The notes under the pieces: generated by a model
What the model was told of the DNA's origin: nothing
The model's database searches: none
What the model saw: the letters and a program-made list of their open reading frames with translations, nothing else
Position numbers and translations under genes: made by a program
Part shown: positions 3 through 19,733 of the stretch, one piece after another
Layout: each line of letters opens with the position of its first letter
How positions within the stretch are numbered: the stretch's first letter is position 1
IMG/VR virus record: IMGVR_UViG_2740892424_000003
DNA: 20,000 bases
From: an uncultured virus (IMG/VR IMGVR_UViG_2740892424_000003)
Lineage: Duplodnaviria; Heunggongvirae; Uroviricota; Caudoviricetes
Strand: one strand, 5' to 3'

Positions 3-848
3 TCCACGGCCAGCATTGGGGCGCTAGTTGTTTTTGCGGCAAGCAGTGGCGGGGTTTACGTATCAAAAGATCGCGGCCTTACTTGTTTGATTGCCTCTGG
101 CGTTTCAGCTTCTGCCGTTTTCGAGTGCAATGGATTTATCTATGCAAGTAACAGTGGCAGCCTGCGACGCACGTCTAACGGGGATACTTGGGAGTACTGC
201 ACCGGAGTTACAGGTGCCGTTTGTGGTATCGCGTATGGGAATGGGGTGTATATCGCCCCATCAAGTGACTCAACGAATGTATGCTGGACAAGTTCGGATG
301 GTGTTTCATTCTCGATAAAGGTGACAGCTCCTGCAGCGGTAAAAACCAGCATTTGCTTTTCAAATGGATTGTTCTTTTTATCGACGACTCAAAGTTCGGT
401 TGTTGGCCCAAGCGTATCTAACAACGGTGAGTCATGGTTCGTTGCAACCCTCTACCAAGGGGCGTCACTGCTTGTTCACTTGGTTATTTCTGCTGTTGAT
501 CGAATTTACGCATTCACCAATGCGGGAATCTTTGAAACGTTGGATGCAACGCAATGGATTAAAATTGGTGTTATGCCGTCTTCATATACTGCCACGCCTA
601 ATTTCCCGCGAGGGTTCTATCAAGATGGATTGCTTGGTGTTTTATCCTCCTCATCAGTGTTGATGGCAAATCACCCCTCCGCCCTAGTGTCAATCACCTT
701 TGGTGGCGCTGCTCATGCTGCATGTATTTCTGGTGACTACCTTATTGCAGGACTTACGAAACCATCCAGTATTGTTCACAGGAGGAAGCTGGGGCGGGTT
801 GTAGGAAATCCAAGATATATAAGCGGAATTTACTACAGGGTAAAATGA
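3..848 (+). CDS. Phage tail fibre/receptor-binding protein, C-terminal part (5'-truncated by the window), beta-propeller with Asp-box/BNR-like repeats
   Basis: The frame is open from position 3 (STASIGALVVFAASSGGVYVSKDRGLT...), so the track start at 87 is not the real start. Repeated SxDGxxW/F motifs (SKDRGLT, SNGDTW, SSDGVSF, SNNGESW, TLDATQW). Lower GC than downstream genes; followed by a chaperone-like gene. Confidence 0.7.
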   Translation, partial: STASIGALVVFAASSGGVYVSKDRGLTCLIASGVSASAVFECNGFIYASNSGSLRRTSNGDTWEYCTGVTGAVCGIAYGNGVYIAPSSDSTNVCWTSSDGVSFSIKVTAPAAVKTSICFSNGLFFLSTTQSSVVGPSVSNNGESWFVATLYQGASLLVHLVISAVDRIYAFTNAGIFETLDATQWIKIGVMPSSYTATPNFPRGFYQDGLLGVLSSSSVLMANHPSALVSITFGGAAHAACISGDYLIAGLTKPSSIVHRRKLGRVVGNPRYISGIYYRVK

Positions 849-849
849 C

Positions 850-1149
850 ATGAACATGTTTATTGTTGATGGTCCTGGTGCTAATCGCGCTAGCGTCGGA
901 TTTAACGATATTGATCTCGAAATAAATGACAAGGTGTTAGCCATAAAAGCCGAGGCGGAGCGCCGTATCACCGCCTTGGACTGGCGCCTGCAAAGGGCTC
1001 AGGAGCGTGAGCAGCTTGGCGAGGCAGGTTTCGAGACGGTAGCCAATGTGTTGGCTCTGCGCGAACAGATCCGGCAGGCCAGCAATGCCGCTGAGCAGGC
1101 CGTATCCACGCTAACCGATGTTGGCGCTGTGCGCGCGTTCACCTGGTGA
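850..1149 (+). CDS. Putative tail fibre assembly/chaperone protein (99 aa)
   Basis: Starts 1 nt after the fibre stop. Helical, with the pattern IKAEAERRI...REQIRQASNAAE and a C-terminal W typical of fibre-associated small proteins. Confidence 0.6.
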   Translation: MNMFIVDGPGANRASVGFNDIDLEINDKVLAIKAEAERRITALDWRLQRAQEREQLGEAGFETVANVLALREQIRQASNAAEQAVSTLTDVGAVRAFTW

Positions 1150-1165
1150 ACGCAGAGACTTGAGT

Positions 1166-1192
1166 AAGCCGCCATCTGGCGGCTTTTTTATT
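1166..1192 (+). terminator. Rho-independent terminator
   Basis: AAGCCGCCA-TC-TGGCGGCTT followed by TTTTATT. Confidence 0.85.
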
Positions 1193-1201
1193 GGGGGAAA
1201 T

Positions 1202-2107
1202 ATGGTAGCCATCACAGCGACAACCACGCCTTTTGATGCCAAAGACGTGAACGACCAGGTTAATAAAACGATCAGCCAGGATGGCTTGCTGATGCGCATG
1301 GCCAAGGCCAAAGGCGAGCAGTACGCAGCTGGCCGCGGGCTCTCCAACAGCTCAATCGGTGCCGAGGCGTCGCAACGGGCGATCGTTGATGCTGCGTTAC
1401 CTATTGCCAGCCAGAACGCGGGGCAGGCATGGAAGAGTGACGAGAACCGAATTGATCGCGGTCATCAGCTGACTATGCAGGGGAACCAGTTTGGCCATGA
1501 AAAGGGAATGGCCAATATCAACGCGCAACTGCAAAAAGAGCGCGATCAGCTGTTGCACAAAAACAGCCTGGGGATGCTGGATGCAGAGGGCCAACAGCGC
1601 CTGAAAGAGTTGGGTGTTCAGAACCAATATCAAACTGAGCGCGATCAGCTGCTGCATAAGAACAGTCTCGGAATGCTGGATGCCGAAGGCCAACAGCGGC
1701 TGAAAGAGCTTGGGGCGCAGAGTGAGTACCAGAAGGAGCGGGATCAGCTATTGCACAAAAACAGCCTGGGGATGCTGGATGCAGAGGGCCAACAGCGCCT
1801 GAAAGAGTTAGATAACCAAAACAAGGCCAGCCTGGATCAGCTGGCCCAGCAGGTAGTGGCCAACACCCACGGCATGTACATGAGCACGGTCGATAAGGCA
1901 GTCAGCTCCTATAACGACCGCTATGCAGCTGTCATGGCTGACAACACGATGAAGGCTACAGACAAAGAGAAGCTGGTCAACAACATGAAGACCGAACTCA
2001 ACTCGACACTGAATATGTACCAGCAGATGTACTCCAACATCAGCACCATCAAACCGGATTGGACTAAGTTCCCGTCCGCATCATTGCCCGGCGTGAACGT
2101 AAAGTAA
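1202..2107 (+). CDS. Putative virion DNA-ejection/pilot protein with three 33-aa repeats (301 aa)
   Basis: ATG 1202 follows GGGGG; the track start at 1118 would run through the terminator. Q/N/A-rich helical composition; first gene of a cluster preceding a giant virion protein. Confidence 0.6.
   Translation: MVAITATTTPFDAKDVNDQVNKTISQDGLLMRMAKAKGEQYAAGRGLSNSSIGAEASQRAIVDAALPIASQNAGQAWKSDENRIDRGHQLTMQGNQFGHEKGMANINAQLQKERDQLLHKNSLGMLDAEGQQRLKELGVQNQYQTERDQLLHKNSLGMLDAEGQQRLKELGAQSEYQKERDQLLHKNSLGMLDAEGQQRLKELDNQNKASLDQLAQQVVANTHGMYMSTVDKAVSSYNDRYAAVMADNTMKATDKEKLVNNMKTELNSTLNMYQQMYSNISTIKPDWTKFPSASLPGVNVK
1538..1810 (+). repeat. Three tandem 99-nt repeats (ERDQLLHKNSLGMLDAEGQQRLKEL...), third unit partial
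   Basis: Units start at 1538, 1637 and 1736; the 25-aa core is identical in all three. Confidence 0.95.
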
Positions 2108-2116
2108 GGGGGTCAC

Positions 2117-2487
2117 ATGTTTGATTTTGGCGGCATGGTATCAAGTGCGATCGACATGGCCGATCAGGCGGTCGATGCGGTGCTTGGTGGCCTTTCCAGT
2201 GCGGGATCTTGGATGCAGAGTAATCCGGGTGCGGCAACGCTACTTGGTTCAGCCCTGGTCGCTGGCGGCTCATACCTTGAGAACCGAGAGGCTCAGAAGA
2301 ACCAGCGCAATATGCAGAAAGACATATGGGGTAGGGAGGACCAATTACGACAGGAGAACGGCCTGCCGGCCAACCTGACTCCGGTCGAGTACCAGGTATC
2401 AACGCCAGGGCTTGCCGGTGATGGCATGTCTACGGGGGGGCTCTTACCAGCGGGCTTCTTGCCAACATCAAGAAGCAGGGGGCGTAA
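2117..2487 (+). CDS. Small Gly/Ala-rich putative ejection protein (~123 aa) with an apparent frameshift at the G7 run 2434-2440
   Basis: RBS AAGGGGG. Adding one G gives ...TGGALTSGLLANIKKQGA*, stopping at 2485-2487 directly before the next ATG (2488). As assembled, the frame runs 289 nt into the next gene as low-complexity sequence. Confidence 0.65.
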
Positions 2488-3693
2488 ATGGCAAAGGGTA
2501 GCGGAAAGGGCAGCAGCAGCGGCAGCAGCAAGGGGAGTAGTGGCGGCAGCAAAGGCGCCAGCAGCTCGAGCAAGGGCGCTAGCAACAATAACCGCAATGG
2601 AAGCAGCCAAGGTGCCAGCGCAGGCAATCGTGGCAGCACATCCAGCTCCAGCTCCAGCAGCAAGGGTGCGGCATCCAGCAAGAGTGGTGGCGCGAGTTCA
2701 TCGGGCAGCAAGGGGGCATCTTCAACCAGCCGCGGCGGGCCTAGTTCAATTGGTGGTGGATCCAGTTATGGCATGAGCAAGGGCTCATTCAACAACTCAA
2801 TAGGTGCCAACAACAAGGGGCAGCAAGCCACCAGTGGTAACGGTAAAAACGACAACAACAGCGTTGCCAGTCGAATTGCGTCCGTCAGCAAGACCCTGAG
2901 CACCTACAAGGCCACCTCTACTCCTCCAAACCACAACATCAGCTCGATCGGCGGCCCGTCGATGTATGGCATGCACGATGGTTCATTTGGTGGAAAGGCC
3001 AAGGGAGCTCTTGGTCTTGGCCCGTCCACCAATTTCAACGAAACCATCAAGACTGACAATGTGAATGGGGTGATCGGCAACCTGCAGCGCAAGGCGCAAA
3101 ACGGCACTCTAACCGCCCGCGACAGGACCAATGTTGCCGACGCGTCCGGGGCATATAACAAACAGGCTGGCGCCAATATTTTTGGCGGCGCGCTGTTGGG
3201 AGGGGCTGGCAAGGCGGTTGCGGGGCTGGTCGGGGATATCGGAAATACCGACTCCTACTTCTCAGGCATCGGCCGAGATGCTGCGCGCGGTGATTTTGAT
3301 AGTGAACGGTTAACGGGGCAGCGAGGGCAGGCGCTGGGGTCAGAAGGGGGATTAGACTCGACCCTGAAAACCGCCTTGGGATTTTTGTCTGGCGTGGTGC
3401 CTGGTGCTGGCCAACTGCTTTCTGGTGTGGCGAGCGGCTTGACTCAGCCAGCATCAGGCTTTGGTGCTTCGCTCAACGACCTCAACGTACAGGCCGGTAA
3501 CAACTTCAATCAAGCCGGTGCAAATCGCAGCAATGGCGGCAGCAATGGCGATATCGCATCAGCCCCGCCCCGCTACTCGCTGCCAAACAACAATGACCTC
3601 GATAAGAGCATGGCTGGCGACTTTAATTTCAACCCCAGCCGATTTGATGTAACCCCCGGTATCCGGGCTCAGTATGCATGGGATGGTGAGTAA
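2488..3693 (+). CDS. Ser/Gly-rich putative ejection (internal virion) protein (401 aa)
   Basis: RBS GGGGG. About 90-aa S/G/K low-complexity N-terminus and Gly-rich hydrophobic segments; TAATG coupling to the next gene. Confidence 0.7.
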   Translation: MAKGSGKGSSSGSSKGSSGGSKGASSSSKGASNNNRNGSSQGASAGNRGSTSSSSSSSKGAASSKSGGASSSGSKGASSTSRGGPSSIGGGSSYGMSKGSFNNSIGANNKGQQATSGNGKNDNNSVASRIASVSKTLSTYKATSTPPNHNISSIGGPSMYGMHDGSFGGKAKGALGLGPSTNFNETIKTDNVNGVIGNLQRKAQNGTLTARDRTNVADASGAYNKQAGANIFGGALLGGAGKAVAGLVGDIGNTDSYFSGIGRDAARGDFDSERLTGQRGQALGSEGGLDSTLKTALGFLSGVVPGAGQLLSGVASGLTQPASGFGASLNDLNVQAGNNFNQAGANRSNGGSNGDIASAPPRYSLPNNNDLDKSMAGDFNFNPSRFDVTPGIRAQYAWDGE

Positions 3694-4172
3694 TGGGATT
3701 GATTCAAAGTATGCAGGGCCAGCAACCACAACAACCACAGCAGCAGGGCGGTAATGATGACGCCATGCATGCCAGCTTGATGGAGATGCTGGGCGCCACC
3801 CTGCTTGGTGATGGTGGGCAGGCCGTTGCCGGTCGCTTGCAGGCCGGCGAGGACAAGATCCAGGGGGTGGCCGATGCGGTGGCAGGGGGCATTTTCACCA
3901 TCCTCAAGCAGGCCATGGAAGCCGGTCGCGGCGTTCCTGCTCAGCAGATCGTCAAAGCGGTGTATGCCGGCTGCCGTGAGATGCTGACATCGGGCAAAAT
4001 TGGCGATCCAGATAGCAAGATCGACGCCCTGTTTCGCGCCATGGACAAACTCAAGGAGATGGACGCCGAGAACGACGTGATTGACGATCAGATCCTGGCT
4101 GAGGCCAGTCAGATACTGGAGGCTATCGTGCAAAAAATGGATGAAGCCGAACAGCAAGGGGGTGCAGCATGA
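3693..4172 (+). CDS. Phage protein, acidic helical (159 aa), ejection-gene cluster
   Basis: Coupled at both ends (TAATG, ATGA); high GC3. Confidence 0.75.
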   Translation: MGLIQSMQGQQPQQPQQQGGNDDAMHASLMEMLGATLLGDGGQAVAGRLQAGEDKIQGVADAVAGGIFTILKQAMEAGRGVPAQQIVKAVYAGCREMLTSGKIGDPDSKIDALFRAMDKLKEMDAENDVIDDQILAEASQILEAIVQKMDEAEQQGGAA

Positions 4173-4903
4173 GCCTGCTCGCAGCATTAGCCAAGGGCTT
4201 TGGTGCCGGTACCGTCAATAACGCGCAGGTAGGGTTTGCGGAGCAGCAGCGCCTGCGTGAAGCCGCTCAGCGTAAAGACGAGATGGGAACGGAGCTGGCC
4301 GCCCGTGACAAGTTGACACAGAAGCAGATCGACGCGAGCCGTGAAGAGAACAATACCCGATTCAAGGCAATGGCTGGCGAGAACCAGAAGAACCGGGATC
4401 ATGACTGGGCCATGTTCGAGAGGCGACTTGCACTGGAAACGCAAGCAGCGGCGGCCAACGCCAGCGTTCGCGCCCGCGAGACTCACGCCAAGAACATCAT
4501 GGGCACCATGGATCAGCTGTCCAAGCGCAAGGCGGAGCTGATGGGGAACGACAAGATTACCGATGAACAGCGCGCAGTAGCTCTGGGCGAGATTGATACA
4601 TTGGGCTACACCTTGGCATCTGACCCTGGCGCCCAGCAACTGCTGGGGGAGTTTGGGGGTGGAGGCTACGCCAATTACTGGCTTTCCTTGGCGCCGCAGA
4701 AGCAGGCCGAGCCGACCCAGGCACCACAACAATCAGTCGCCCCCCCTGCAACCCAGCCACCAAAACCGCAAGGCATCATCCCTCGTATGCAGGGTGACCG
4801 CTCTATCGAGAAGGCACTGATACAGTCTGGCAGGGAGGCATTGAATGCCAATAAAAATCCTGACGCCATGGCATCCAGCGCTTACCAGCAGATGTACAAA
4901 TAA
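4169..4903 (+). CDS. Putative ejection/DNA-transfer protein (244 aa)
   Basis: MSLLAALAKGFGAG N-terminus followed by a coiled coil, typical of podovirus injection proteins; ATGA overlap. Confidence 0.65.
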   Translation: MSLLAALAKGFGAGTVNNAQVGFAEQQRLREAAQRKDEMGTELAARDKLTQKQIDASREENNTRFKAMAGENQKNRDHDWAMFERRLALETQAAAANASVRARETHAKNIMGTMDQLSKRKAELMGNDKITDEQRAVALGEIDTLGYTLASDPGAQQLLGEFGGGGYANYWLSLAPQKQAEPTQAPQQSVAPPATQPPKPQGIIPRMQGDRSIEKALIQSGREALNANKNPDAMASSAYQQMYK

Positions 4904-4932
4904 TAAAGCCCGCCGAGTGGCGGGCTAATTTG
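4904..4932. terminator. Terminator hairpin between convergent genes, likely bidirectional
   Basis: AGCCCGCC-GAGT-GGCGGGCT flanked by A-rich and T-rich tracts. Confidence 0.75.
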
Positions 4933-4964
4933 TTCAGCTGACTGTATTTTTATCTTGTAAGTTA

Positions 4965-5510
4965 CTACTTAACATCTGCTGATTTTGCCAATTCATCAAG
5001 GGCTTTTTTAAAGCCATCCGCATGGCCGACAGTGCTGATAACTGCGTTTTCTTTCTGTTCCCCTTCATTTATGAAGTGTTTTTTAAGTATTGATTCAAAA
5101 CCTCTAACATCAGTATCGTGCCCATTGAAATTAACTATATTGGATGATGCCATTTTGACTGCTATCTCAATAGATTCGTCGCCAAACACCTGCGTATAGC
5201 ACTGAGAAAACCCACTCTTCTGTTTCTTTGTTGATGTTGCCTTGTATTGCTCACCATCAACAATTAGATCTCCATTGCATCTTGTTGCATTTATTTCTAG
5301 CAATGTGAAAGCTGATTCATTATTTAATGCTTCAAAGGTTACTTGGACCAAGTCATCATGATAAGACGCCCCAATCCACCCCTTTTGTCCATTCCAGTCT
5401 TTAACAATTTCCCATCTATTGGTATCTCGACCATCAATAGAAACATTCTCATGCTTGGCACAGCTAAAAATAAACACTGACATAATGACAGCTGCCATCT
5501 CTTTTTTCAT
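4965..5510 (-). CDS. Lipoprotein moron (181 aa), function unknown
   Basis: Signal peptide MKKEMAAVIMSVF-IFS-C17; RBS GAGGG; markedly AT-rich; antisense to the late operon. Confidence 0.8.
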   Translation of the reverse strand: MKKEMAAVIMSVFIFSCAKHENVSIDGRDTNRWEIVKDWNGQKGWIGASYHDDLVQVTFEALNNESAFTLLEINATRCNGDLIVDGEQYKATSTKKQKSGFSQCYTQVFGDESIEIAVKMASSNIVNFNGHDTDVRGFESILKKHFINEGEQKENAVISTVGHADGFKKALDELAKSADVK

Positions 5511-5731: not shown

Positions 5732-5752
5732 TTGCCTGCGGAGAACGACTAC

Positions 5753-8700
5753 ATGGCCAAGCCAACCCGGGATGACTTCATTGCTGCCGCCAGGGCGCGC
5801 TATTTACCACAGCAACCAGACGACAATGGTGGCGATGAGCAGGGCATCATCGGTGACACTGTTGACATGTTCCAGCGTGGCCTGGGGCAGACCCTGGGTG
5901 GCGACCTTGAAACGGTTGGCCAGCTGACTGGCTCGCAGGGTATCAAGGATGCCGGGCGCGGCGTCAGTGCTTGGGCTGATGGGCAGCTGGATCAGGCGTC
6001 TACTCCCATGCGTGAGGCCATGGGCAAGCAGTTCTTTCAGGAAAATGCAGAGACTGGCGCCATTGAGGCAGGCGATGCATGGGCAGATCCGCGCGCGTGG
6101 GCGGGCAACTTCTCTACCGTGCTGGGCCAGTTTGTCGGGTTGGTGGGCGGTACCAAGGGGGCTGGGCTTATCGCCAAGCCCGCCCTGCGTGGCGCTGGCA
6201 AGCTGCTGGCAAAGGATCTGGTGGAAGGGCAAGCCAAAGAACTGGTGGCAAAAGCCACGGTGAAGGATGCCATCAGCGCTGGTGCGCTCGACTCGGTTCG
6301 GGCGGCGTATCTGGCGGCACCAGGGGAGGCAGCAAAGCGGGCTGTGCTGGATAAGGCCATTGGGCGCCTGACCTCCATTGGTTATGGTGCTCACGCTGGC
6401 GCCATGGCGTCTGGCATGCGGGCCCAGCAAGCAGAGCAAGAGGCGCGTGGCTACTTCAATGGGCTTGGCAACGACGAGCTCAACGCCAACCCCATCTATC
6501 AGCAGGCTTATTGGGAGCTGGCTGATGGCGAGATGCAGGGGGCTGACATTGGCGATATTCGACGAGCGGCGATCGACAGTGTTGCGGAGCTGGCGGCCAC
6601 CGATGCGTGGTCAGACCCGCGTGCGCTAACAGCGGATTTTCTATCCGGGGTGATGACTGGTGCCGGTGGTGGTGTCGGCGGTTTACTCGGCAAGGTGGGA
6701 AGCACCCGGGCTGGCGCTGCCGTGCGCGGCTTTGCCGGTGAAGGAGCCACTGAGGCGTGGCAGGGTGGCGAGACGCAGCGAGCCGTGAACCAGGCAGTGC
6801 AAGAGTGGGCGGACGAGAGTCGCGACCCCATGGCGGGCGTGCTGTCTGCTGCGCTGAACGAGGGGACGATTGGCGGCGCATTCGGTGGCGTAGTGGGTGC
6901 CGTGCATGGCCCACAGGCTCCAGATATGGCCAAGCCCTTGGTGCGGGTTGAGCGCCGGGTGGTTACCGGTGACCAGCAGATGGATGACATGATCCACGGC
7001 CTCGACCAGCGCCAGGCTGAGCGCGGGGCCAGCATCAGCAGCCAGATCGACAGCATGTTTGCCGGTGCCAACAACCCATTAGGGTCTGGCAAGTTCGATC
7101 CGGTTCGTGATGTGCCGGCTTACCAGCGACAGGGCTTTGTTCGTGGTAGTCACGACTTCCAGGGGAAAGCAATCGTACCGCTGGAGGGTGAGTTGCTGGA
7201 TCCGGCTACCGCCATGTCCGCCACGCCCAGTGGCCCACAGCCTGATATGGGTGGGCAACCTTCTGATCCCGCCCTTGATATGACCGCCATTGCCGATCAG
7301 CGCATCAGTGGCGAGTTGCAAGATGAGGCTGCCCTGCCTGGGCAGCAGGCCAATCTGCTGCCTGGTGCGACCTATGAGGGGGAGGCGCGCGAGGTGGGTA
7401 CAGATCTGCCAGTACCGCGCGGCCCGGCACCGGCACTGCCAGAGTCGAGCAACGCCGCCACAGTTCCACTGCCTGAAAGCGTGCGACTGACGCGCCGTGG
7501 CTTGCCTTTCTCCAGTGAGAAGGAGGCAGCCCTGGCCAGCCGCCAGGATGAAACCCCCATTCCCCTCGATGGCGGCGGCTTTGGCATCGCCAAGATTGCC
7601 GAGTTGGAGCAGGGGCGTGGCGAGCAGGCCGCGACTGTACCGCAAGACATCAACCAAGAGGTGAGAGATAACAGCTTGCCGCAACCGCTCGCGCCTGCCG
7701 TCGATACCGGATACCGCGAGGAGATCCCCGCCACCCAACCACAAGCAGAGGTTTTCAATGAGCAGGCTCCCCAGGTACTTGCAATCAGCAGTGAACGACA
7801 AGGTGATCAGCCTGGAGCAGGCCAACCAGTTGCAGAGAGCGCTGGAGCAGCCACTGCCGGACTCTCCGACCGAGCTGGAACCGGAGATCGGGCAGGTCTC
7901 CTTGCTTCTGCACCTGTACCAGATGGACAGCAGCAGAATGACCAAACACTGACTGCCCCGGCCACTGATGCCGGGGTTGATGTTTCTGGGCCTGCCGATC
8001 CCGCCCCGCTGCCGTGGGCTGAGTCCATCAACAATGCCGATGGCACCATCACGCTCAAAGGCGAGATCCCCATTATCAGGCAATGGGCCAAGGATAACGG
8101 GGTGAAGGCGATCCCAGGCAAGGGTGGGGTGGTCGTAGCCAAGTCCTCTGCCGCCAAGGTGCTGGATATGGTGGCACCAGCCGCCACTAAGCCGGTGCAG
8201 CAGATCGAAGCTGCCCGCGCCGAGGTTGCTCCCGAGCCCACAGAAGCACAGAAGGAGGCGGGGAACTACAAGAAGGGCCACCTCACGCTGCAGGGGCTGG
8301 ATATCGCACTGGAGGACCCCAAGGGGTCCACCCGCTCCGGCACCGATCAGGATGGCAAGGCGTGGCAATCGACCATGGCCCACGACTACGGCTACATCAA
8401 GCGCACCCTGGGGGCGGACGGCGATCACGTCGATGTGTTCATCGGTGACCAGCCGGATAGCGAAACGGTCTATGTGGTGGATCAGGTAGACCCCAAGACC
8501 GGCAAGTTTGACGAGCACAAGGTGATGATGGGGTTTGCCGACGAGCAGGCGGCCCGGGCCGGATACCTGGCCAACTATGAAAAGGGCTGGAAGGGGCTCG
8601 GCACTATCAAGGCCATGCCGGTTGATGAGTTCAAGGTATGGGTGAAGGAAGGGGATACCACCAAACCGATCGATGGCAAAGAGGAAGGGAAGCCTGCTGG

Positions 8701-11700
8701 TGAGCCGGACCCTGTTGCTGAGCCAGAGCGCATTATCAACTTCTCCAAGCAGGCCATGGCCCAAGGCGATAAGCCGGCCAAGTCCCTGACCCGCAAAGAG
8801 GCTGATTTGGTCACCAAGGAGTGGTTCAAGCAGTACAAGGGGGCAGCCGGCATTGATGTGCAGATCCACGCCACCCAGGCGGAACTGGAGCAGGCATTGG
8901 GGCTGGATGCGAAAGAGGGGCTGATCCGGCGCGCTGCTTTCGACGATGACACTGGCACCCTGCATGTGGCCGCTGACACCATTGCCAACCCCAAGCGGAT
9001 GCGCGAGATCCTGCGCCATGAAGTGCTGGCTCACTATGGCTTGGCCAATGTGCTTGGCGATGGCGAGTACACCAAGCTGATCAGCCGGCTCATCAAGTCG
9101 AAGAAAGACCCCAGCATGAAGGCGGTATGGGATTGGGTTGATACTCATTATGCCGATGAGGATATCGGGGTGCAGGCTGAGGAGGTGGTGGCTCACCTTG
9201 CGGAACTGGAGCAGGGCGCATGGGGGCGCGGCTGGGATCAGGTGGTGGCATGGGTCACCAAGGCACTGCGTGCAGTTGGCTTTGTGCCTGACGGCATCAC
9301 GGCTGCCGAGACGCGCAGCCTGATCGATGGGCTGGGCAATAAGATGAAGCGCGGCAGTCCTGATGATAGTGGCCCTGATGGCGGCAAGAAGTTTAGCCAG
9401 GAGGAGCAGCCAGCCAAGAAGGGCGGCATCAAGATGAGCCAAACCAGCACCCAGGCAGATGATGCCATGAAGAAGCTGAACCTTGGCCCCAAGCCAGATG
9501 TCATCGACAACACCAAGGCCAACCTGGACAAGCTGCGTGCAGTGGATCGCGGCGTGATCAAGTTGTGGGTGGATCGGTTCATCAAGAAGGCCAACACCGA
9601 AGTGCTCGATGCGCTGGCCCCCATCAAGTACGCAGAGCAAGCCGCAGGCATTACCGATGCTGCCGACTCGGGTTACATCGCTGCACGCATGGCGACTGGG
9701 GCGGCATCTACCATGCAGGCCACCATGCTCTATGGTCTGCCTGAGTGGAAGGACGGGGTGATCCAGCGCAAGGAAGGTACCGGCGAGAAAGATGCGCTGT
9801 TGGGAATCTTCTCTGACCTTGGCAAGGATTTGCACAACTGGCTCGGTTGGATGGCTGGCCACCGCGCTGAACTGCTGATGGAGCAAGGGCGCGAAAACCT
9901 GCTGAGTGAACAAGACATAGCGGCCCTGAAAGGGCTCGGCAAGGGGAAGGAGGCCAAGTTCATGGAGGCCAAAGCCCGCTGGAACCGCCTGAATGCTGCC
10001 ACCCTTGATCTGGCGCAGGAGGCCGGGCTGTTCACCGCTGATGCCCGGGCCGAGTTCGAAAACGAGTGGTACATCCCATTCTTCCGGGAATCTGACGATG
10101 GTGACGTGATCGCGCCATTCAAGCCGAAGGGTATTGCCAACCAGAACGCCGGGATCAAGAAGCTCAAGGGGGGCGAGGCCAACACCAACGACCTGCTCGA
10201 GAACATCTTTACCAGCACCAGCAAGCTGATCGACGCCTCCATGAAGAACATGGCAGCGCAAAAGACGGTCTGGAATCTGGCCGATACCGGTGCCATTGAG
10301 ATAGTTGCCAAGCCCAACATGATGGATTGGCGCGCACTCAAGAACGGCAAGGACCTGATCACCGTCAAGTTGGATGGTGAGGACTACATGATCCGGGTGG
10401 TGGACCCTGATCTGTACCGCGCCATGACCTTCTTCGACCGGCAACCGTTTGGAGCCATGGTGAATGTGGCCGCCAAAGCCAAACGCCTGCTGACGGCAGG
10501 GGTCACCGCATCCCCTGAGTTCATGCTGCGCAACTTCTTGCGCGACTCCCTCTCCAGCTGGGCGATCAGTAAAGACGGCTTCAAGCCGGTGATCGACTCC
10601 ATCAAAGGGGTGAAGAAGACGCTAGCCATGGAGGGGAGCACCATTGATGTGATGTTCAGTGGTGCCAGCTTCCTTGGTGGCTATGTCAACGGTAACGATC
10701 CGACGGCTATGGCCGACTCTGTGCGCAAATCACTGCGTCGCAAAGGGATGACACCTGAGCAGATCGCCAAGTATGAGAAATCCATCGTGCGCAACGCCGC
10801 CCACGTCAAGGGTGTAGTGGCCGATGTGTGGGACAAGTACAGCCAGTATGGTGAGGCGTTGGAGAATGCCAACCGCGAGGCCGTCTATGCGGCAGCGATC
10901 AAGGCTGGCAAGAGTCACGCCCAGGCGGCGTTCGAATCGAAGGATTTGATGGACTTCTCCATGCTCGGGGCGGCCCGTTTCATTCAGGGGGCATCAATGG
11001 TATTGCCGTTCTTCAACGCCCGCCTGCAGGGGCTCGGCAAGCTGAGCCGTGAGCTGCGTGACAACCCGCGGGAGATTGCCAAGCGCGCCGGCATGATCAC
11101 TGCAATGTCGCTCGGGCTGCTTGCTCTGAACTGGGATGACGAGCGCTATGAGGAGCTGCCGGACTGGGATAAGGATGCAAACTGGCACTTCTTTGTCGGC
11201 GATCAGCACTTCCGGATCCCCAAGCCGTTTGAGATTGGCGTGATGTTCGGCACAATCCCGGAGCGCATGGTGCGCGCCATGGGTGGCAAGGACACTGGCG
11301 CCCAGCTCGGCAAGGCGGTGGCCAGAGCGATCGGTGAAACATTCGCCCTCAACCCCACCCCGCAGATCGTCAAGCCGTTGGTGGAGTCCTATTTCAACTA
11401 CGACTCTTTCCGTGGCGGGCCCATCGAGAACGCACAGGATCTCGCTGTGAAGGCGGAAGCCCGTTACAACGAGCAAACCAGCCTGATTATGCGTGAACTT
11501 GGCGAAGCAATGGGGATGTCGCCCAAGAAGCTGGAGCACCTGCTGATCGGTTATACCGGCACGATAGGCGGCTACGTCATGGCCACCGCCGACGGCTTGA
11601 TCCGCGCAGCGCAGCCTGGCGAGTCAGCCAGCTGGCGCGCAGATGAGATCCCGTTGGTCAAGGCTGTGTATCGCGGCACCGGCCCTGCCAAATCTACCCA

Positions 11701-12013
11701 GCACATGGAAGAGTTTTACCGGATGCTGAACGAGGTAAACCAGCTCAAGCGCACCGTTGACCAGTACCGCAGTGAGGGGCTTACCGACAAGGCCAATGAG
11801 CTGCTGGATGAGCAGGGCGGTATCTTGAAGTCGCGCAGCAGTTTGAGTCGGACTCAGCAACAGGTACGAGTGGTGCGAAACAGGATTGAGCTGCTGCAGC
11901 GCGACCGAGTGCTGAGTGCTGACGAGAAGCGCCGGCGCATAGATGAGCTGCTTTCGCGCCGCAATGATCTGGTGTACCAGGCGGTGAACAACAACCGCAA
12001 GAACTGGGAATAG
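5753..12013 (+). CDS. Large polyvalent phage protein (~2086 aa): Gly/Ala-rich N-terminus, Pro-rich linker, InPase-like domain (~8230-8670), zincin-like metallopeptidase (~8790-9350), C-terminal LPD38-type region
   Basis: ATG 5753 follows GGAG. Motifs: PTEAQKEAGNYKKGH...YGYI...GADGDHVDVF...DEHKVMMGF (InPase of polyvalent proteins); HEVLAH (9017-9034) plus EEVVAH; YEELPDWDKD.NW.F...FRIPKPFEIG (LPD38). Confidence 0.85.
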   Translation: MAKPTRDDFIAAARARYLPQQPDDNGGDEQGIIGDTVDMFQRGLGQTLGGDLETVGQLTGSQGIKDAGRGVSAWADGQLDQASTPMREAMGKQFFQENAETGAIEAGDAWADPRAWAGNFSTVLGQFVGLVGGTKGAGLIAKPALRGAGKLLAKDLVEGQAKELVAKATVKDAISAGALDSVRAAYLAAPGEAAKRAVLDKAIGRLTSIGYGAHAGAMASGMRAQQAEQEARGYFNGLGNDELNANPIYQQAYWELADGEMQGADIGDIRRAAIDSVAELAATDAWSDPRALTADFLSGVMTGAGGGVGGLLGKVGSTRAGAAVRGFAGEGATEAWQGGETQRAVNQAVQEWADESRDPMAGVLSAALNEGTIGGAFGGVVGAVHGPQAPDMAKPLVRVERRVVTGDQQMDDMIHGLDQRQAERGASISSQIDSMFAGANNPLGSGKFDPVRDVPAYQRQGFVRGSHDFQGKAIVPLEGELLDPATAMSATPSGPQPDMGGQPSDPALDMTAIADQRISGELQDEAALPGQQANLLPGATYEGEAREVGTDLPVPRGPAPALPESSNAATVPLPESVRLTRRGLPFSSEKEAALASRQDETPIPLDGGGFGIAKIAELEQGRGEQAATVPQDINQEVRDNSLPQPLAPAVDTGYREEIPATQPQAEVFNEQAPQVLAISSERQGDQPGAGQPVAESAGAATAGLSDRAGTGDRAGLLASAPVPDGQQQNDQTLTAPATDAGVDVSGPADPAPLPWAESINNADGTITLKGEIPIIRQWAKDNGVKAIPGKGGVVVAKSSAAKVLDMVAPAATKPVQQIEAARAEVAPEPTEAQKEAGNYKKGHLTLQGLDIALEDPKGSTRSGTDQDGKAWQSTMAHDYGYIKRTLGADGDHVDVFIGDQPDSETVYVVDQVDPKTGKFDEHKVMMGFADEQAARAGYLANYEKGWKGLGTIKAMPVDEFKVWVKEGDTTKPIDGKEEGKPAGEPDPVAEPERIINFSKQAMAQGDKPAKSLTRKEADLVTKEWFKQYKGAAGIDVQIHATQAELEQALGLDAKEGLIRRAAFDDDTGTLHVAADTIANPKRMREILRHEVLAHYGLANVLGDGEYTKLISRLIKSKKDPSMKAVWDWVDTHYADEDIGVQAEEVVAHLAELEQGAWGRGWDQVVAWVTKALRAVGFVPDGITAAETRSLIDGLGNKMKRGSPDDSGPDGGKKFSQEEQPAKKGGIKMSQTSTQADDAMKKLNLGPKPDVIDNTKANLDKLRAVDRGVIKLWVDRFIKKANTEVLDALAPIKYAEQAAGITDAADSGYIAARMATGAASTMQATMLYGLPEWKDGVIQRKEGTGEKDALLGIFSDLGKDLHNWLGWMAGHRAELLMEQGRENLLSEQDIAALKGLGKGKEAKFMEAKARWNRLNAATLDLAQEAGLFTADARAEFENEWYIPFFRESDDGDVIAPFKPKGIANQNAGIKKLKGGEANTNDLLENIFTSTSKLIDASMKNMAAQKTVWNLADTGAIEIVAKPNMMDWRALKNGKDLITVKLDGEDYMIRVVDPDLYRAMTFFDRQPFGAMVNVAAKAKRLLTAGVTASPEFMLRNFLRDSLSSWAISKDGFKPVIDSIKGVKKTLAMEGSTIDVMFSGASFLGGYVNGNDPTAMADSVRKSLRRKGMTPEQIAKYEKSIVRNAAHVKGVVADVWDKYSQYGEALENANREAVYAAAIKAGKSHAQAAFESKDLMDFSMLGAARFIQGASMVLPFFNARLQGLGKLSRELRDNPREIAKRAGMITAMSLGLLALNWDDERYEELPDWDKDANWHFFVGDQHFRIPKPFEIGVMFGTIPERMVRAMGGKDTGAQLGKAVARAIGETFALNPTPQIVKPLVESYFNYDSFRGGPIENAQDLAVKAEARYNEQTSLIMRELGEAMGMSPKKLEHLLIGYTGTIGGYVMATADGLIRAAQPGESASWRADEIPLVKAVYRGTGPAKSTQHMEEFYRMLNEVNQLKRTVDQYRSEGLTDKANELLDEQGGILKSRSSLSRTQQQVRVVRNRIELLQRDRVLSADEKRRRIDELLSRRNDLVYQAVNNNRKNWE
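7758..7952 (+). CDS. Overprinted 64-aa gene in the +1 frame inside the polyvalent gene
   Basis: GAGGT RBS (7748-7752) 5 nt before the ATG; 54/64 codons end in G/C; GC-rich hairpin 3 nt after the stop. Confidence 0.75.
   Translation: MSRLPRYLQSAVNDKVISLEQANQLQRALEQPLPDSPTELEPEIGQVSLLLHLYQMDSSRMTKH
7955..7987 (+). terminator. Terminator-like hairpin following the nested ORF
   Basis: CCCCGGC-CACTGAT-GCCGGGG followed by TTGATGTTTCT (interrupted U tract). Confidence 0.55.
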
Positions 12014-13890: not shown

Positions 13891-14223
13891 GTGAGTAACG
13901 CCATTGAGTTTATTGAGACATCGATCTTTACCAAGCAGATAAAAGCGCTCGCAACAGATGATGAGCTCAGAGCACTACAAACAGAATTGATTGCCCAGCC
14001 GGAAAAGGGTGATTTGATCCAGGGCACGGGGGGTCTGCGAAAAATTCGCATGGCAACTGGCCAGCAGGGGAAGAGTGGCAGCGCGAGAGTTATCTACTTT
14101 CTAGCGACAGCTGAGATGATTTACTTAGTGCTTGCCTATGCCAAGAGTGAGAAAGAAAGCCTGACATCGGCAGAAAAGGCCGAGTTAAAGCGCTTGACCA
14201 CGTTACTAAAAGGCGAGGTTTAA
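13891..14223 (+). CDS. higB: RelE-superfamily toxin, HigB-2 type
   Basis: FIETSIF...GDLIQGTGGLRKIR...GKSGSARVIY...YAKSEKESLT signature. Confidence 0.9.
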   Translation: MSNAIEFIETSIFTKQIKALATDDELRALQTELIAQPEKGDLIQGTGGLRKIRMATGQQGKSGSARVIYFLATAEMIYLVLAYAKSEKESLTSAEKAELKRLTTLLKGEV

Positions 14224-14224
14224 C

Positions 14225-14509
14225 ATGAACATGTTTGACGAATTGAAGGCTTCCCTTGAGGAGGCTGTTGAAATTAAGCAGGGCCTTCTTGAGCCTGCCG
14301 CGCGGACTCGCTATGAAGTGGCGGACGTAAAGGCTATTCGCCTCGCACTGAATGTTTCTCAGCAAGAGTTTGCCCAGGCTCTTGGGACGAGTGTTGATAC
14401 GGTCAAAAGTTGGGAGACCCGGCGCCGCAACCCGACTGGATTGGCAGCGAAGGTCTTGACGCTTATGCAAGAAAAGCCAGATCTCTACAGTGAGCTAGCT
14501 GCTCACTAA
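14225..14509 (+). CDS. higA: HTH antitoxin, HigA-2 type
   Basis: N-terminal MFDELKASLEEA helix plus XRE HTH (IRLALNVSQQEFAQALGTSVDTVKSWETRRRNP); toxin-first gene order. Confidence 0.9.
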   Translation: MNMFDELKASLEEAVEIKQGLLEPAARTRYEVADVKAIRLALNVSQQEFAQALGTSVDTVKSWETRRRNPTGLAAKVLTLMQEKPDLYSELAAH

Positions 14510-15310: not shown

Positions 15311-15731
15311 ATTTTGAATTTTTTCTATCTTTTAGTAATTGGCACTCATTAACTGATACGGCATAAACTTGATAAGAGTTCCAACGGGAGACCCGTCTTA
15401 GATCCTGACACTCCACGTAATTGTCAGACTTAAAACTTAATTTAATCTTGGTAGCAAAGGTTAAGATAGGCGCTATGGCGAAAATGACAATTAGCACGCT
15501 CCGTTGAAAAAGTTTGTCTGGATTTCCAATCTTTGCTACTGACATTAACACATGAGGAATCAACACAATGCCAACTAGCGGAGCACAGTAAGAAGCCCAA
15601 ATATTGGCAATGCCGCTAACCCTAAACGATGCAGATCCATTAGATAAAGTGGCATACAAATCATCTGATACCTGTTCAAATCCGAACCAGATAAAAGCTG
15701 CGGCAATGATCAGTCGTATGATATGAATCAT
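15309..15731 (-). CDS. DUF1240-like membrane immunity protein, Tmi-type (140 aa)
   Basis: Three hydrophobic segments plus C-terminal NYVEC...SR...VYA...C; ATGA-coupled to the upstream PAAR effector; AT-rich. Confidence 0.75.
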   Translation of the reverse strand: MIHIIRLIIAAAFIWFGFEQVSDDLYATLSNGSASFRVSGIANIWASYCAPLVGIVLIPHVLMSVAKIGNPDKLFQRSVLIVIFAIAPILTFATKIKLSFKSDNYVECQDLRRVSRWNSYQVYAVSVNECQLLKDRKNSK

Positions 15732-16786
15732 TCGGCCAACCTTTTAAGCGAGTTGCCAATCTCATCTGAGAATCCATAACGCTCATCTAATGCGTCTAGC
15801 TCACGACCCATAAAGAAAGAACCAAATGCAAAGAGAGCGCCAGTTACCAAAATTCCTGATACCGGTAGTGTCGCAACGACTAGAGACATGGTTACTAGCG
15901 TCATCATCCCCTTGATGATGTCACCAGAACTATTACCAACGAACTCGGCTAAGGTCGCCTCATCACGTAAGATGTAATCAGCAGCATTCACTCCTACAGC
16001 AAAGGCAATTTCTATCCCAGCATTTACTTTGACCCACCGAGCAGCACCTTTAACATCAGTTAAACCAATACCTATTTGAACAACTCGTGGATTACTCGAT
16101 TTCCATTTATTCCCTTTCATCAAGGTTTGAGCATGGCGGCGATAGTTCTTGATGATTACATAATCAATACCGTTGATATTCTTGGCATAAGAAATAACGC
16201 CTAATCCACCTAAGCCTTTGGCAGTTTGGGCAGCCGTTTTAACGCCATCTACCAAGTCGTGGTAGCTCTTAGTTGTACCCACTGCATCCTTACCACCCAT
16301 CTCAGAGTAAAGCGTCTGCAGCAGCTCTTTAGCCTCTGCCAATGAGAGTACAGCTATATCAGTTGGTGCCATGGTGTATACAACCTCTAGCGTCTTCCCC
16401 TGAGCAAAGTCATAGGGAGGCCAATAGGCATTTTTAACCGGTATCTCTACAGGCGTGACAGGTTGTGGTGCCGGTGCCGCTCGTCCTGCTGGTGCTTGGT
16501 CACCAATAACTACTGTCCCAGAACCAATGATGACACCGCCGCAATCAACTGCTCCGCCAGTTAAGGCTGCGGGCATTCCGTTGATAAAGACGGTAGAAGA
16601 ACCTGATGCAATTGATCTGGGGTGTGGTGGATTATTTGGTTTGTCATGAGGAGCGAGGGGATCACCAACACGGGCAGCAGGAATACCGTCTATGAACACA
16701 TCGGGCGACCCTGCAATGATAGCTGTAGGATGAAACCCATCATGGTCTGTACCAATATCACCTACTTTCGCAGCCTGTTTTGTCAT
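15728..16786 (-). CDS. PAAR-domain specialised T6SS effector with Tme-like membrane-disrupting C-terminus (352 aa)
   Basis: N-terminal PAAR domain (AAKVGD...IPAARVGD...MPAALTG, His/Cys ligands), Pro linker, then GLGGLG...YVIIK...NPRVVQIGIG and C-terminal TM helices; RBS GAGGA; adjacent to a DUF1240-like gene. Confidence 0.8.
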   Translation of the reverse strand: MTKQAAKVGDIGTDHDGFHPTAIIAGSPDVFIDGIPAARVGDPLAPHDKPNNPPHPRSIASGSSTVFINGMPAALTGGAVDCGGVIIGSGTVVIGDQAPAGRAAPAPQPVTPVEIPVKNAYWPPYDFAQGKTLEVVYTMAPTDIAVLSLAEAKELLQTLYSEMGGKDAVGTTKSYHDLVDGVKTAAQTAKGLGGLGVISYAKNINGIDYVIIKNYRRHAQTLMKGNKWKSSNPRVVQIGIGLTDVKGAARWVKVNAGIEIAFAVGVNAADYILRDEATLAEFVGNSSGDIIKGMMTLVTMSLVVATLPVSGILVTGALFAFGSFFMGRELDALDERYGFSDEIGNSLKRLAE

Positions 16787-17582: not shown

Positions 17583-19194
17583 ACTCGATGATGGGGGATA
17601 GCTGGCTGGCCAACTGCTTGGCTTGTTGGCCATGTCCTGTCATGGCCCCGCTGTTACCGGGTGCTGGCCCGCTGCCGTGGGTATGGCCGGCAGTGGCCGC
17701 GGCCAGCTGTTCCACCACGTTCATCAGCTGCAGCAGCAGCCTGAAGATGTTCACGCCCTCGGTCCCCATCCACGAACGGGGCGCCTCCAGGTGTTGCAGC
17801 TCGCCGGCAACAGCCCGGCGCAGCTGACCCACCACCTCGACCAGATCCCCCGCCGTGGTCTGGCTCATGTTGCCCAGACTCCCCAGGATGAGATCATCAC
17901 CTGCCAGCAGCTCGATGGCCCCCAGCGCCTCGATGAGCTTGAACCCGCCCACCGCCTCTATGCTGTGCTGTACCACCTGCAGTCGATGCTGGCCATGTTC
18001 CCCCAGGTAGTCGTCACTCTGGTGGTGCATCTGCAGGGCCTGGTCATGCAGGCGCCGGTCGGTGTGGCGGCTCAGGTTGCCCACGGTATCGGTGCGGCTG
18101 AACACCTCGGCCCGTTGTTGCTGCAGTTGCTCGCCCGGGGCGATGTCCGGCAGGGCCCAGCCGCTGCCGAGCACTGTACGGATAAAGGGCCGATCGGCCC
18201 GCCCAAAGGCAAAGCCCAGTTCAACCAGTGTCCCCTCGATGGGGAACTGCAGCAGGCCTTGCTCCTGCCCGCCGAACTGCACCGGCAGCGGCACGGCCCG
18301 ATAAAGTGGGGCGGCTTTGTCTGGTTGGCCATCTTCGCCTAGCAGTTGCACGTCCACCGCATAGCGGGGGCGAAAGGGGTCATTGAGCTGGCCGGCGCTG
18401 GCCTGATCGCTGATGGTCTCGACCCGCCCGAACTTGGGCAGGTGCATCTTGTCGGCCAGCTCCGGGAACTCCCCCTCTATCTTGCGCCGCTCTGGTGACT
18501 TGGTGACCTTGCCCGGGGTGGCCGTGGTCAGGGTCATTTCGTCACCCTTGAGCCGCACCCGTATCACCCGCTTGCCGTTGAGGATGGTGCCGGGACGGAT
18601 GGCCGGCACTGGTGACAGGGTCAGGGAGTCGCCTGCCTGGCGGCCTGACCAGGCGAGATCAAGCATGACCTCCTTGTCATGCCAGCGGCTGTCGGCGTGG
18701 CTGCCGACGAAGATGGCGCCATCGGGTTGCTGGTACCAGACAAAGTCAGGCACCTCAAAGGCGCGGCCAGCGTTATCGAGCAGCTGATAGCCGGTGCCCG
18801 CGCTGGTGAAGTTGGGGATCGGCCGGTCGGTGTAATCGCGGCCCTTGGGCAGCAAGAAGGTCAGCCCGGTTTGGTCGGTCAGCCAGGCCAGCAGGCCGCG
18901 CAGGGTGGCGTGTTGCTGGCTGACCGGCAGCCGAGAGCCCAAGGCGCCGGCCAGCTCACGGCACAGCAGTTTGCTGGCGCCATTGGCGGCAGGCTGCACG
19001 TCGTACACGTAACCGGTGAACCAGCGGCGCAGGTCACCGTTATAGCCGGTATCCAGGGTGAAGGTCTGCCCCTTGCGGGCGGTTCCCTCAATGGTCAGGG
19101 CGGCGCGGCCGCCGGCGTTGATGTCCAGCACCAGGTCGTGGTCGATGAGGTGCACCGGTTGGCCGGCGAGGGCCAGTGAAGTGGAGAGTTTCAT
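17581..19194 (-). CDS. HP1/K139-like baseplate hub-spike fusion protein (537 aa; last tail gene)
   Basis: Hub-like N-terminus, OB-fold-like middle (FPIEGTLVELGFAFGRADRPFI), beta-helix-like repeats and a C-terminal HTH tripeptide (HxH metal apex); very high GC3. Confidence 0.75.
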   Translation of the reverse strand: MKLSTSLALAGQPVHLIDHDLVLDINAGGRAALTIEGTARKGQTFTLDTGYNGDLRRWFTGYVYDVQPAANGASKLLCRELAGALGSRLPVSQQHATLRGLLAWLTDQTGLTFLLPKGRDYTDRPIPNFTSAGTGYQLLDNAGRAFEVPDFVWYQQPDGAIFVGSHADSRWHDKEVMLDLAWSGRQAGDSLTLSPVPAIRPGTILNGKRVIRVRLKGDEMTLTTATPGKVTKSPERRKIEGEFPELADKMHLPKFGRVETISDQASAGQLNDPFRPRYAVDVQLLGEDGQPDKAAPLYRAVPLPVQFGGQEQGLLQFPIEGTLVELGFAFGRADRPFIRTVLGSGWALPDIAPGEQLQQQRAEVFSRTDTVGNLSRHTDRRLHDQALQMHHQSDDYLGEHGQHRLQVVQHSIEAVGGFKLIEALGAIELLAGDDLILGSLGNMSQTTAGDLVEVVGQLRRAVAGELQHLEAPRSWMGTEGVNIFRLLLQLMNVVEQLAAATAGHTHGSGPAPGNSGAMTGHGQQAKQLASQLSPIIE

Positions 19195-19733
19195 GCCAGT
19201 ACGTCATCCATCGGTTTGAGCACATAGCGCTCGAAGCTGCTGAGATCCGGCTCACCATCCCCTTTGCCACCACCCTTGGCGGCACTGGTGTTATCGGTGC
19301 CCTGGCCCACGGTCGGGGCCGTCTTTGGCAGGCGTTGTTCGCGCTTCTCCGGTACCGAGTTGAACTCCTTCAAAGTGAACTGCACCTGCCAGGCTAATAG
19401 CCCCTCTTGCTCGCTGGCAGTGATGCGCCCAGCAAACTTGGCCTGGCGCACCTTCACCGACTTGGCCAAAAGCGAGCCGACCCGGTAGACGTGGCGCTTG
19501 CCGCCATCGCCCTTGGCATCGGCCAACTCAAACAGCCGGCTCAGCATGCGCTCATCCTTGAACGGGATGAGGCCGGAGACGTCGAGCTCCTTGGCCTTGG
19601 CGCCCTGTTCGGCGCTGCTGGTCGAGCTGGTCTGGCCGCTCTGGTCCTTGTCCTGAAACTGCATCGACGCAGAGACCCGCATCGATTTCATGATGATGGG
19701 CTCGCCATCGAGGGTCAGCATGGCTTGGCTCAT
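19191..19733 (-). CDS. HP1/K139-like baseplate/tail protein (180 aa)
   Basis: DKDQSGQTSST...EQGAKAKELDVSGLIPF motif; ATGA coupling at both ends. Confidence 0.7.
   Translation of the reverse strand: MSQAMLTLDGEPIIMKSMRVSASMQFQDKDQSGQTSSTSSAEQGAKAKELDVSGLIPFKDERMLSRLFELADAKGDGGKRHVYRVGSLLAKSVKVRQAKFAGRITASEQEGLLAWQVQFTLKEFNSVPEKREQRLPKTAPTVGQGTDNTSAAKGGGKGDGEPDLSSFERYVLKPMDDVLA

Follow-up and report, generated by a model that had tools for sequence, protein, structure and literature searches.

A probable small gene nested out of frame within the giant polyvalent virion protein gene of Aeromonas phages, with relatives in Vibrio and Thalassomonas phages

Nested genes are familiar in phages, as in the Rz/Rz1 spanin genes of lambda, where Rz1 is a lipoprotein that works with Rz, and in phiX174, where gene B lies in gene A and gene E in gene D. 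In Bacillus subtilis, the giant surfactin synthetase gene srfA holds within it, in another frame, comS, which has a known regulatory role. Here we describe a candidate of this kind in the window, by which we mean the whole 20,000-nucleotide stretch from IMG/VR record IMGVR_UViG_2740892424_000003, an uncultured virus of the Caudoviricetes, where an open reading frame (ORF) of 64 codons lies at 7758-7952 in the +1 frame of a giant gene for a polyvalent virion protein (the host gene). An earlier note, made from the letters of the window, had pointed to this ORF as a self-contained, separate gene. Comparison of homologous loci strongly supports that claim through frame-specific selection, an invariant ATG, GAGGT and TGA, and a host spacer that stays free of stops, and we regard it as highly likely that the ORF is a real, selected protein-coding gene. 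The full explanation proposed below, which adds a route of expression and an origin, we consider probable.

Like Rz1 and the nested genes of phiX174, the ORF of the window would be a small gene that is complete in itself, begins at its own start codon and lies entirely within a larger phage gene, on the same strand but in another frame. In Rz/Rz1 and phiX174 both genes are read from one mRNA, and the same may hold here. Unlike Rz1, the 64-amino-acid product contains no Cys or lipobox and no signal peptide, the marks by which an Rz1-type o-spanin would be recognised, and the host gene encodes a polyvalent protein and not Rz. A further difference from Rz/Rz1 is that both neighbouring domains vary, and that the host frame of the window appears to be an unconstrained spacer rather than a functional domain. 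The likeness to comS in srfA lies in a small protein gene placed out of frame in a giant multi-module gene; comS differs in being bacterial, and it has no sequence relation to the gene of the window.

The closest published parallel is found in actinophage DNA methylase genes, where ShiLan-type insertions hide an HNH endonuclease gene out of frame (Arsenault, Gosselin & Gogarten 2025, PMC11855218). These insertions are reported to share with the locus of the window an insertion-like module that holds a complete gene in another frame and is read through stop-free by the host gene, and a presence that varies among homologous host genes; here, Thalassomonas phage BA3 has the gene, and X14, 41E34.2 and 1.211.A are without it. 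Unlike these insertions, the nested ORF carries no HNH or nuclease signature in Pfam (no nuclease family was matched by eight diverse members at E <= 1) and no evidence of homing, its product is a predicted three-helix protein of 64 amino acids, and the module occurs in phages of three host genera. The fold searches also returned no nuclease, a result that is inconclusive alone. The arrangement is of a known type, that of nested or hidden out-of-frame genes, and on the comparative evidence this family is a well-supported addition to it, with an uncharacterised product. No earlier description of the nested gene was found in the literature searched, most subscription journals lying outside that search, and a text search of the genome paper of Vibrio phage VvAW1, which carries a relative, found none of the words overlap, nested and embedded.

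Selection in the nested frame

The layout reported in the earlier note, an ORF in the +1 frame with a Shine-Dalgarno (SD) sequence before it and a hairpin after it, was confirmed in its spacing, and the locus comprises the following features.

5732-12013, + strand: giant polyvalent virion protein ORF (host gene) of 2093 codons, beginning with TTG at 5732 (first ATG at 5753)
7733-7791, + strand: weakly structured translation-initiation region, -25 to +35 around the nested ATG
7735-7988, + strand: conserved indel-free block (SD, nested ORF, hairpin and T-rich tract) between mosaic, indel-rich flanks
7748-7752, + strand: Shine-Dalgarno sequence GAGGT, 5 nt before the nested ATG; no Fitch changes at its five positions
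7758-7952, + strand: probable nested gene, 64 codons plus TGA, ATG start, +1 frame of the host gene
7956-7976, + strand: GC hairpin, 7-bp stems CCCCGGC/GCCGGGG (7956-7962 and 7970-7976) and 7-nt loop, 3 nt past the nested stop
7977-7988, + strand: T-rich tract TTGATGTTTCTG, the end of the conserved block, with the mosaic junction to variable cargo domains directly after it

The comparisons among Aeromonas loci draw on 36 phage or prophage loci with 27 distinct block sequences, including the window, Aeromonas phage phiARM81mr, 30 loci reached through the peptide and 3 further ones reached through the N-terminal domain. Against phage records, blastn of 7400-8300 matched only phiARM81mr, and only over 7688-7989 (82% identity), with the flanks unaligned. 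A peptide-based scan gave 24 IMG/VR loci, and a scan of one genome per species gave seven Aeromonas loci together with a spurious one (L033), which was dropped. A scan blind to the block, made with the N-terminal domain of the giant protein (window 5882-6961), returned 14 loci, of which one (L043) ends before the site; the block is present in all 13 testable loci, among them the new contigs L040 and L045 and the divergent L046, in which the nested ORF is intact at 45% peptide identity. Across the 27 distinct sequences (36 loci), ATG, GAGGT and TGA show no change, with the spacer after GAGGT varying, and the nested ORF is 63-64 codons long in every Aeromonas locus, both length changes being 3-nt indels. 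The nested and host frames are open in 27 of 27, while each of the other four frames bears stops in 10 to 27 of the 27. Stops or a lost start in the +1 frame of homologues, which the earlier note had named as grounds for giving up the gene, were looked for and are absent from all 27. Within the block (~7735-7988) the major-allele frequency is 0.87-0.94, versus 0.2-0.7 in the mosaic flanks.

Substitutions in the block follow the nested frame. Specifically, pooled Nei-Gojobori estimates from the 27 distinct sequences put the ratio of nonsynonymous to synonymous substitution rates (dN/dS) at 0.30 for the nested frame, versus 1.05 for the host frame and 0.98 for the third; the first set of 24 sequences gave 0.24 (nested) and 1.19 (host). 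The nested value is not near 1, which the earlier note had held would count against the gene. Fitch changes at the three nested codon positions number 75, 78 and 136 (chi-square p = 5e-6, indicative only), with a tree-free lower bound of 43, 48 and 78. About 4.4% of single-base changes would make a nested stop, which corresponds to 7-13 expected among the 169-289 inferred changes, and none was seen. In line with this, a sliding scan of the host frame among nine close relatives with alignable flanks (4.7 kb) gives a proportion of synonymous differences (pS) of ~0.35-0.6 outside 7724-7951 and of 0.07-0.11 inside it, where the nonsynonymous proportion (pN) stands at a pN/pS of 1.4-1.6; this ~5-fold dip is the sole one of its kind along the 4.7 kb and is the classic signature of an overlapping gene. 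Taken together, selection at the amino-acid level is shown by these alignments to act on the nested frame, with start, ribosome-binding site (RBS), stop, length and sequence preserved.

The host protein has InPase at residues 838-972 (2.9e-60) and LPD38 at residues 1803-1976 (5.5e-52) by Pfam, and its PHROG matches are to the DarB-like and polyvalent virion protein families; the two Pfam domains together with the PHROG families thus identify it by homology as a polyvalent protein, in agreement with the earlier note. Across the nested gene the giant frame encodes an Ala/Gly/Gln/Pro-rich low-complexity spacer (host residues ~676-745), which matches the linker that the earlier note had read there. 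A T at a nested third position makes a host stop when the next nested codon begins AA, AG or GA, and where T would be synonymous it occurs in none of 266 such stop-making cells versus 30 of 572 harmless cells (the cells are not independent). Similarly, no host-frame nonsense change was seen where ~3-9 would be expected by chance. The giant frame over the block is shown by the aligned loci to be constrained merely to stay stop-free, and appears to be otherwise an unconstrained low-complexity spacer.

The earlier note had rested its case in part on the G/C content of third codon positions (GC3). Its count for the nested frame stands (54 of 64), that for the host frame is corrected from 22 to 23 of 64, and the host gene is, as claimed, GC3-rich elsewhere (0.71 gene-wide); in a sliding scan the host-frame GC3 goes down to 0.36-0.38 only at 7748-8002. 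The conclusion that selection on codon usage had switched frames did not hold up, since distant homologues have a genomic (giant-gene) GC3 of 0.28-0.50 and yet a nested third-position G/C content of 0.79-0.87, so that the bias is not genomic codon bias. The bias mirrors the demands of the host frame on its own first positions, namely Ala, Gly, Pro, Gln, Glu and Asp codons, which start with G or C, and the avoidance of T ahead of AA, AG or GA. The earlier note was right that this frame carries a gene, and the GC3 argument is not the reason. On its own the composition signal is ambiguous; it is the comparative evidence that puts the nested ORF far beyond chance, and a third-position G/C switch is insufficient by itself as evidence of a frame switch.

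Relatives in other phages and the predicted product

A tblastn search with the 64-amino-acid peptide, suggested in the earlier note, gave a weak full-length match (31%, E 0.4) in Vibrio phage VvAW1, beneath the gene named 'DarB-like antirestriction', and led there to a complete ORF in the +1 frame. In each of VvAW1, Vibrio phage vB_ValP_FGH and Thalassomonas phage BA3, the giant gene contains a complete +1-frame ORF within the range of 61-64 codons, and a further scan found 11 IMG/VR contigs with a homologue in the +1 frame of a giant gene. All 12 Vibrio/Thalassomonas-type loci examined have an intact product of 61-64 amino acids, an SD-like GGAG or GAGGT and a His-stop ending. The distant homologues stand at 29-33% identity, and hhalign of the Aeromonas against the Vibrio-type alignment gives a probability of 96.4% (E 1.2e-9, 61 columns). 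In an eight-member alignment the invariant residues are A11, V16-I17-S18, A22, Q31, L53 and the C-terminal His.

In BA3 (EU124666) the ORF is annotated within BA3_0002 as hypothetical protein BA3_0004, from an upstream ATG (110 amino acids). The top row of a fold search of BFVD is A8HNW3, a phage protein of 110 amino acids (probability 0.97, E 0.12), which was taken as a lead only; from this length, A8HNW3 is probably BA3_0004. A word-indexed search returned 116 clusters at 90% identity, more than 100 of them exactly 64 amino acids long, and the named ones are all 'hypothetical protein', for example in A. hydrophila, A. salmonicida, A. caviae and A. schubertii. Contrary to the expectation of the earlier note that gene callers would miss it, the gene has been called in several Aeromonas genomes as well as in BA3; BA3_0004 and the scattered Aeromonas 'hypothetical protein' calls (for example WP_303847632.1) are of the same family as the nested ORF. 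A profile search of 1.84 billion representatives returned only the family itself, frame-broken fragments and two chimeric-looking ORFs; no free-standing distant relative was present among these 1.84 billion predicted proteins, in which nested copies are under-represented. The two chimeric-looking ORFs, P0003 (86 amino acids) and P0013 (79 amino acids), come from short metagenome contigs and hold only the C-terminal 42 and the N-terminal 23 family residues, respectively, the rest being unrelated sequence; recombination or chimeric assembly could have produced them. BA3 (L050) also has a second coding sequence annotated inside the same giant gene, BA3_0003, at 5036-5380 on the - strand, in the +1 frame, of 114 amino acids and with a TTG start, whose sequence looks low-complexity.

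The module persists where its neighbours change. Among the Aeromonas loci, identity in the upstream N-terminal region lies anywhere between 98% and 24%, while the block stays ~80% identical at the DNA level; 8 of the 32 loci compared lack the proximal downstream region. The giant proteins of BA3 and X14/41E34.2 align over residues 1-467 and 793-2631 with the middle swapped, and the BA3 nested gene (471-535) starts at that breakpoint; the homology between BA3 and FGH stops at the nested stop codon; and VvAW1-type contigs with 98% identical peptides diverge immediately past the stop codon. The N-terminus of VvAW1 has no BLASTP similarity to the N-termini of BA3 or the window. Breakpoints lie after the T-tract in Aeromonas and after the stop codon in VvAW1-type phages. 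The nested gene is shown by these comparisons to behave as an autonomous module whose boundaries are the small gene's own and not those of a host-protein domain, and the pattern suggests that the module may be a preferred recombination joint. At window 7988/7989, and after the nested stop in L051-L058, breakpoints to at least three downstream cargo contexts fall exactly at the module end.

As for the product, the earlier note had read the nested frame as helices, and AlphaFold2 predicts a compact three-helix fold (helices 6-13, 19-30 and 42-55/61), with a mean predicted local distance difference test score (pLDDT) of 81 when 17 sequences were supplied and of 87.7 (predicted template modelling score 0.67) with 116. 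The product is small (7 kDa), helical and slightly acidic. In VIA-align wide the best Z was 5.0, with generic helical matches; the weak rows, which include several helix-turn-helix (HTH) DNA-binding domains, were not counted.

Expression, origin and rival explanations

The region from -25 to +35 around the nested ATG has a minimum free energy of -9.0 kcal/mol, whereas 60-nt windows across the host gene average -17.4 (sd 4.3), which places the region at the 2nd percentile; the median percentile across the 27 loci is 0.07, and VvAW1-type loci are included in this pattern. In a 200-nt context, SD and ATG are not especially unpaired (0.32 and 0.22 versus a mean of 0.45), so the support that weak structure lends to initiation is modest. 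Taken singly, the hairpin behind the stop is unremarkable, with z = -1.2 against shuffles and 8 terminator-like sites versus 6.1 expected. Its stems are nearly invariant, host-synonymous sites included, while the loop is variable: all seven pairs are kept in 24 of the 27 distinct Aeromonas sequences and six of seven in the other 3, and L024 has a compensatory change from C:G to T:A. Support for the hairpin comes from this conservation and not from single-sequence statistics. The T-tract is weak and conserved in the Aeromonas lineage. The earlier note had asked that RBS, ATG, stop and hairpin be compared across loci: the first three are kept across Aeromonas, and the hairpin is kept in Aeromonas and lacking in Vibrio-type loci, which marks it as a lineage-specific addition. 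Hairpin and T-tract probably act at the RNA level in the Aeromonas phages, where they may serve 3'-end formation or stabilisation.

The earlier note had found no convincing promoter, and a consensus sigma-70 scan likewise detected no sigma-70-like site near the ORF (7600-7757). A promoter and a terminator of its own would be the marks of a moron, a cassette expressed from the prophage. Because no promoter was found, we infer that the nested gene is translated by internal initiation at its own SD and ATG on the late mRNA that would also encode the giant protein. The nested frame would be the older of the two, with the linker of the giant gene overprinted on it after a read-through fusion had swallowed a small gene; a folded, conserved nested reading, a low-complexity, fast-evolving host reading and a module that outlives its flanks make this history the simplest. 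The three-helix product may be a small binding or adaptor protein made along with the giant ejected protein, as an accessory factor and not a dedicated partner of either neighbouring domain. Since the gene is lacking in X14, 41E34.2 and 1.211.A, it is dispensable for the giant protein as such, in keeping with an accessory role.

Several results weigh against the explanation just given. The loci are related and recombining and so are less independent than the chi-square and Poisson figures imply, and the short-alignment tree inflates the Fitch count. For the distant homologues, the one nucleotide alignment that supports the nested frame, with 29% identity and a BLOSUM62 score of 1.21 per site there versus 19% and 0.14 per site in the host frame, was built on the nested frame and thereby favours it. 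The VvAW1-type subgroup alone leaves the frames unseparated (dN/dS 0.35 versus 0.42, with few changes), and over all Vibrio/Thalassomonas types the comparison is saturated (0.69 versus 0.89). In the podophages 1.211.A, 41E34.2 and X14 no homologue was detected in any forward frame (best hmmsearch E 0.18). No function was gained from two Foldseek runs against PDB, which returned no significant match (best E 2.1 and 0.92), or from Pfam, PHROGs, PDB-sequence profiles and the ESM Atlas, which hold no family for the product. The missing promoter belongs here as well, as does the nature of the RNA-labelled data, which are metagenome contigs unable to show transcription (a 151-nt contig covers 7703-7841 at a depth of 2.5); the matches of the sequencing-run look-up are wastewater metagenome libraries present as contigs, and a raw-read RNA run from a different organism gave no match.

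The earlier note had suggested a different role, in which the product would inhibit the cargo domain or confer immunity to it, or would act in superinfection and be expressed in the lysogen; on this reading its own transcript would end at the hairpin. A conserved terminator-like hairpin and T-tract directly past the stop in Aeromonas, hosts of the nested gene that are prophages, and a small, helical, slightly acidic product would suit such a factor. The gene was also thought to travel with the adjacent domain, and this is not what the loci show: the upstream domain ranges from 98% to 24% identity or has no detectable similarity, and the downstream neighbour is exchanged for another immediately past the block or stop, with none at all in 8 of 32 loci. 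That neither neighbour is constant argues against a dedicated immunity or inhibitor role for an adjacent domain, which is left unsupported. Expression from the lysogen fares no better, as no promoter-like site was found and the smallest conserved block reaches back only ~25 nt from the ATG, and the hairpin is absent from the Vibrio/Thalassomonas homologues. We regard these roles as unlikely. It is very unlikely that the block is kept as a nucleic-acid element, either a recombination 'linker' for cargo swaps or an RNA structure, with no protein made in the +1 frame: mosaic junctions at both block ends and hairpin stems kept at host-synonymous sites with one compensatory change would fit such an element, but variation is phased to the nested third position, dN/dS is 0.30 in the nested frame only, ORF, start and stop are still in place at 29-45% peptide identity, where the DNA can hardly be aligned, if at all, and the translated product is predicted to fold confidently by AlphaFold2.

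A slim chance likewise attaches to a fossil frame, in which a small gene recently captured by, or frame-shifted into, the linker is no longer expressed and the signal is left-over ancestry. The nested frame does look older, with a folded product set against a low-complexity host reading; however, the arrangement is common to phage groups whose flanks have lost detectable similarity, more than 100 clusters at 90% identity are still exactly 64 amino acids long, and among at least 169 substitutions not one creates a nonsense codon or removes the start or the stop. Ribosomes on the giant gene might instead shift to +1 and end at 7952, giving a truncated N-terminal product with a 64-residue tail, a shift that the SD-like GAGGT upstream could stimulate and to which the conserved stop followed by a hairpin might be suited. 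Such a product is extremely unlikely, and was rejected, in view of a nested-frame TGA that blocks entry from upstream, two codons ahead of the ATG, in 18 of the first 26 loci; moreover, the ATG is invariant and no slippery heptamer is visible. The selected frame might also lie on the opposite strand, where a 1121-codon antisense ORF (7079-10444, - strand) has the same wobble position as the nested frame, runs uninterrupted in the window and has a dN/dS of 0.43 in the block. We give this a virtually negligible chance and reject an antisense gene on account of internal stops in 10 of the 27 distinct sequences, and host synonymous diversity is normal over the remainder of the antisense ORF. Antisense codons are exact complements of host codons, so that this strand stays stop-free wherever the host avoids TTA, CTA and TCA, and the antisense ORF is probably a compositional by-product.

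A more speculative extension of the preferred reading, that of an internally initiated accessory gene, is that this mini-module sets the junction for the exchange of cargo domains in giant ejected proteins, its DNA serving as a homology anchor and its protein, made in cis, as a general accessory factor such as a packaging or ejection chaperone or a co-injected counter-defence protein. We put this forward tentatively, as a possibility with a small chance of being right. If true, the 'gene inside the linker' would have a function in the way polyvalent proteins are put together and diversify in phages of several bacterial genera.

Surroundings of the giant gene and significance

Within the otherwise fast-evolving, indel-rich region before the block, a short host-frame motif, RLTRRGLPFSSEKEAALASRQDETPIPLDGGGFGIAKI, at window 7472-7606 is strongly conserved, with a pN of 0.05, and is 47-62% identical even where the remaining N-terminus is ~25% identical. 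Upstream of the giant gene (window 3-5510), seven of the eight ORFs have no PHROG match at E <= 0.001; the ORFs at 2117-2776 and 2488-3693 overlap, and gene calls there are uncertain. Downstream, a pair of small genes at 13891-14506 (+ strand), matching phrog_5869 and an HTH regulator-like family (phrog_2104 / phrog_8), lies between the giant gene and a tail module on the opposite strand. The latter consists of a PAAR-motif protein gene (phrog_281, 15731-16786, - strand), a baseplate protein gene (phrog_2258, E 9e-235, 17584-19194, - strand) and a gene matching phrog_1398 (19194-19733, - strand); with these genes the element has a contractile-tail-type baseplate module.

The locus offers a very clean comparative case of dual coding in phages, in which one frame is selected for a folded protein and the other only to remain open and hydrophilic. 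It shows that real genes, most of them lost in routine annotation, can be concealed in the 'linkers' of giant polyvalent virion proteins, and it defines an uncharacterised small-protein family common to Aeromonas, Vibrio and Thalassomonas phages. Because the family sits at the mosaic junctions of conflict-related giant genes, its product makes a concrete candidate accessory factor for ejected proteins.

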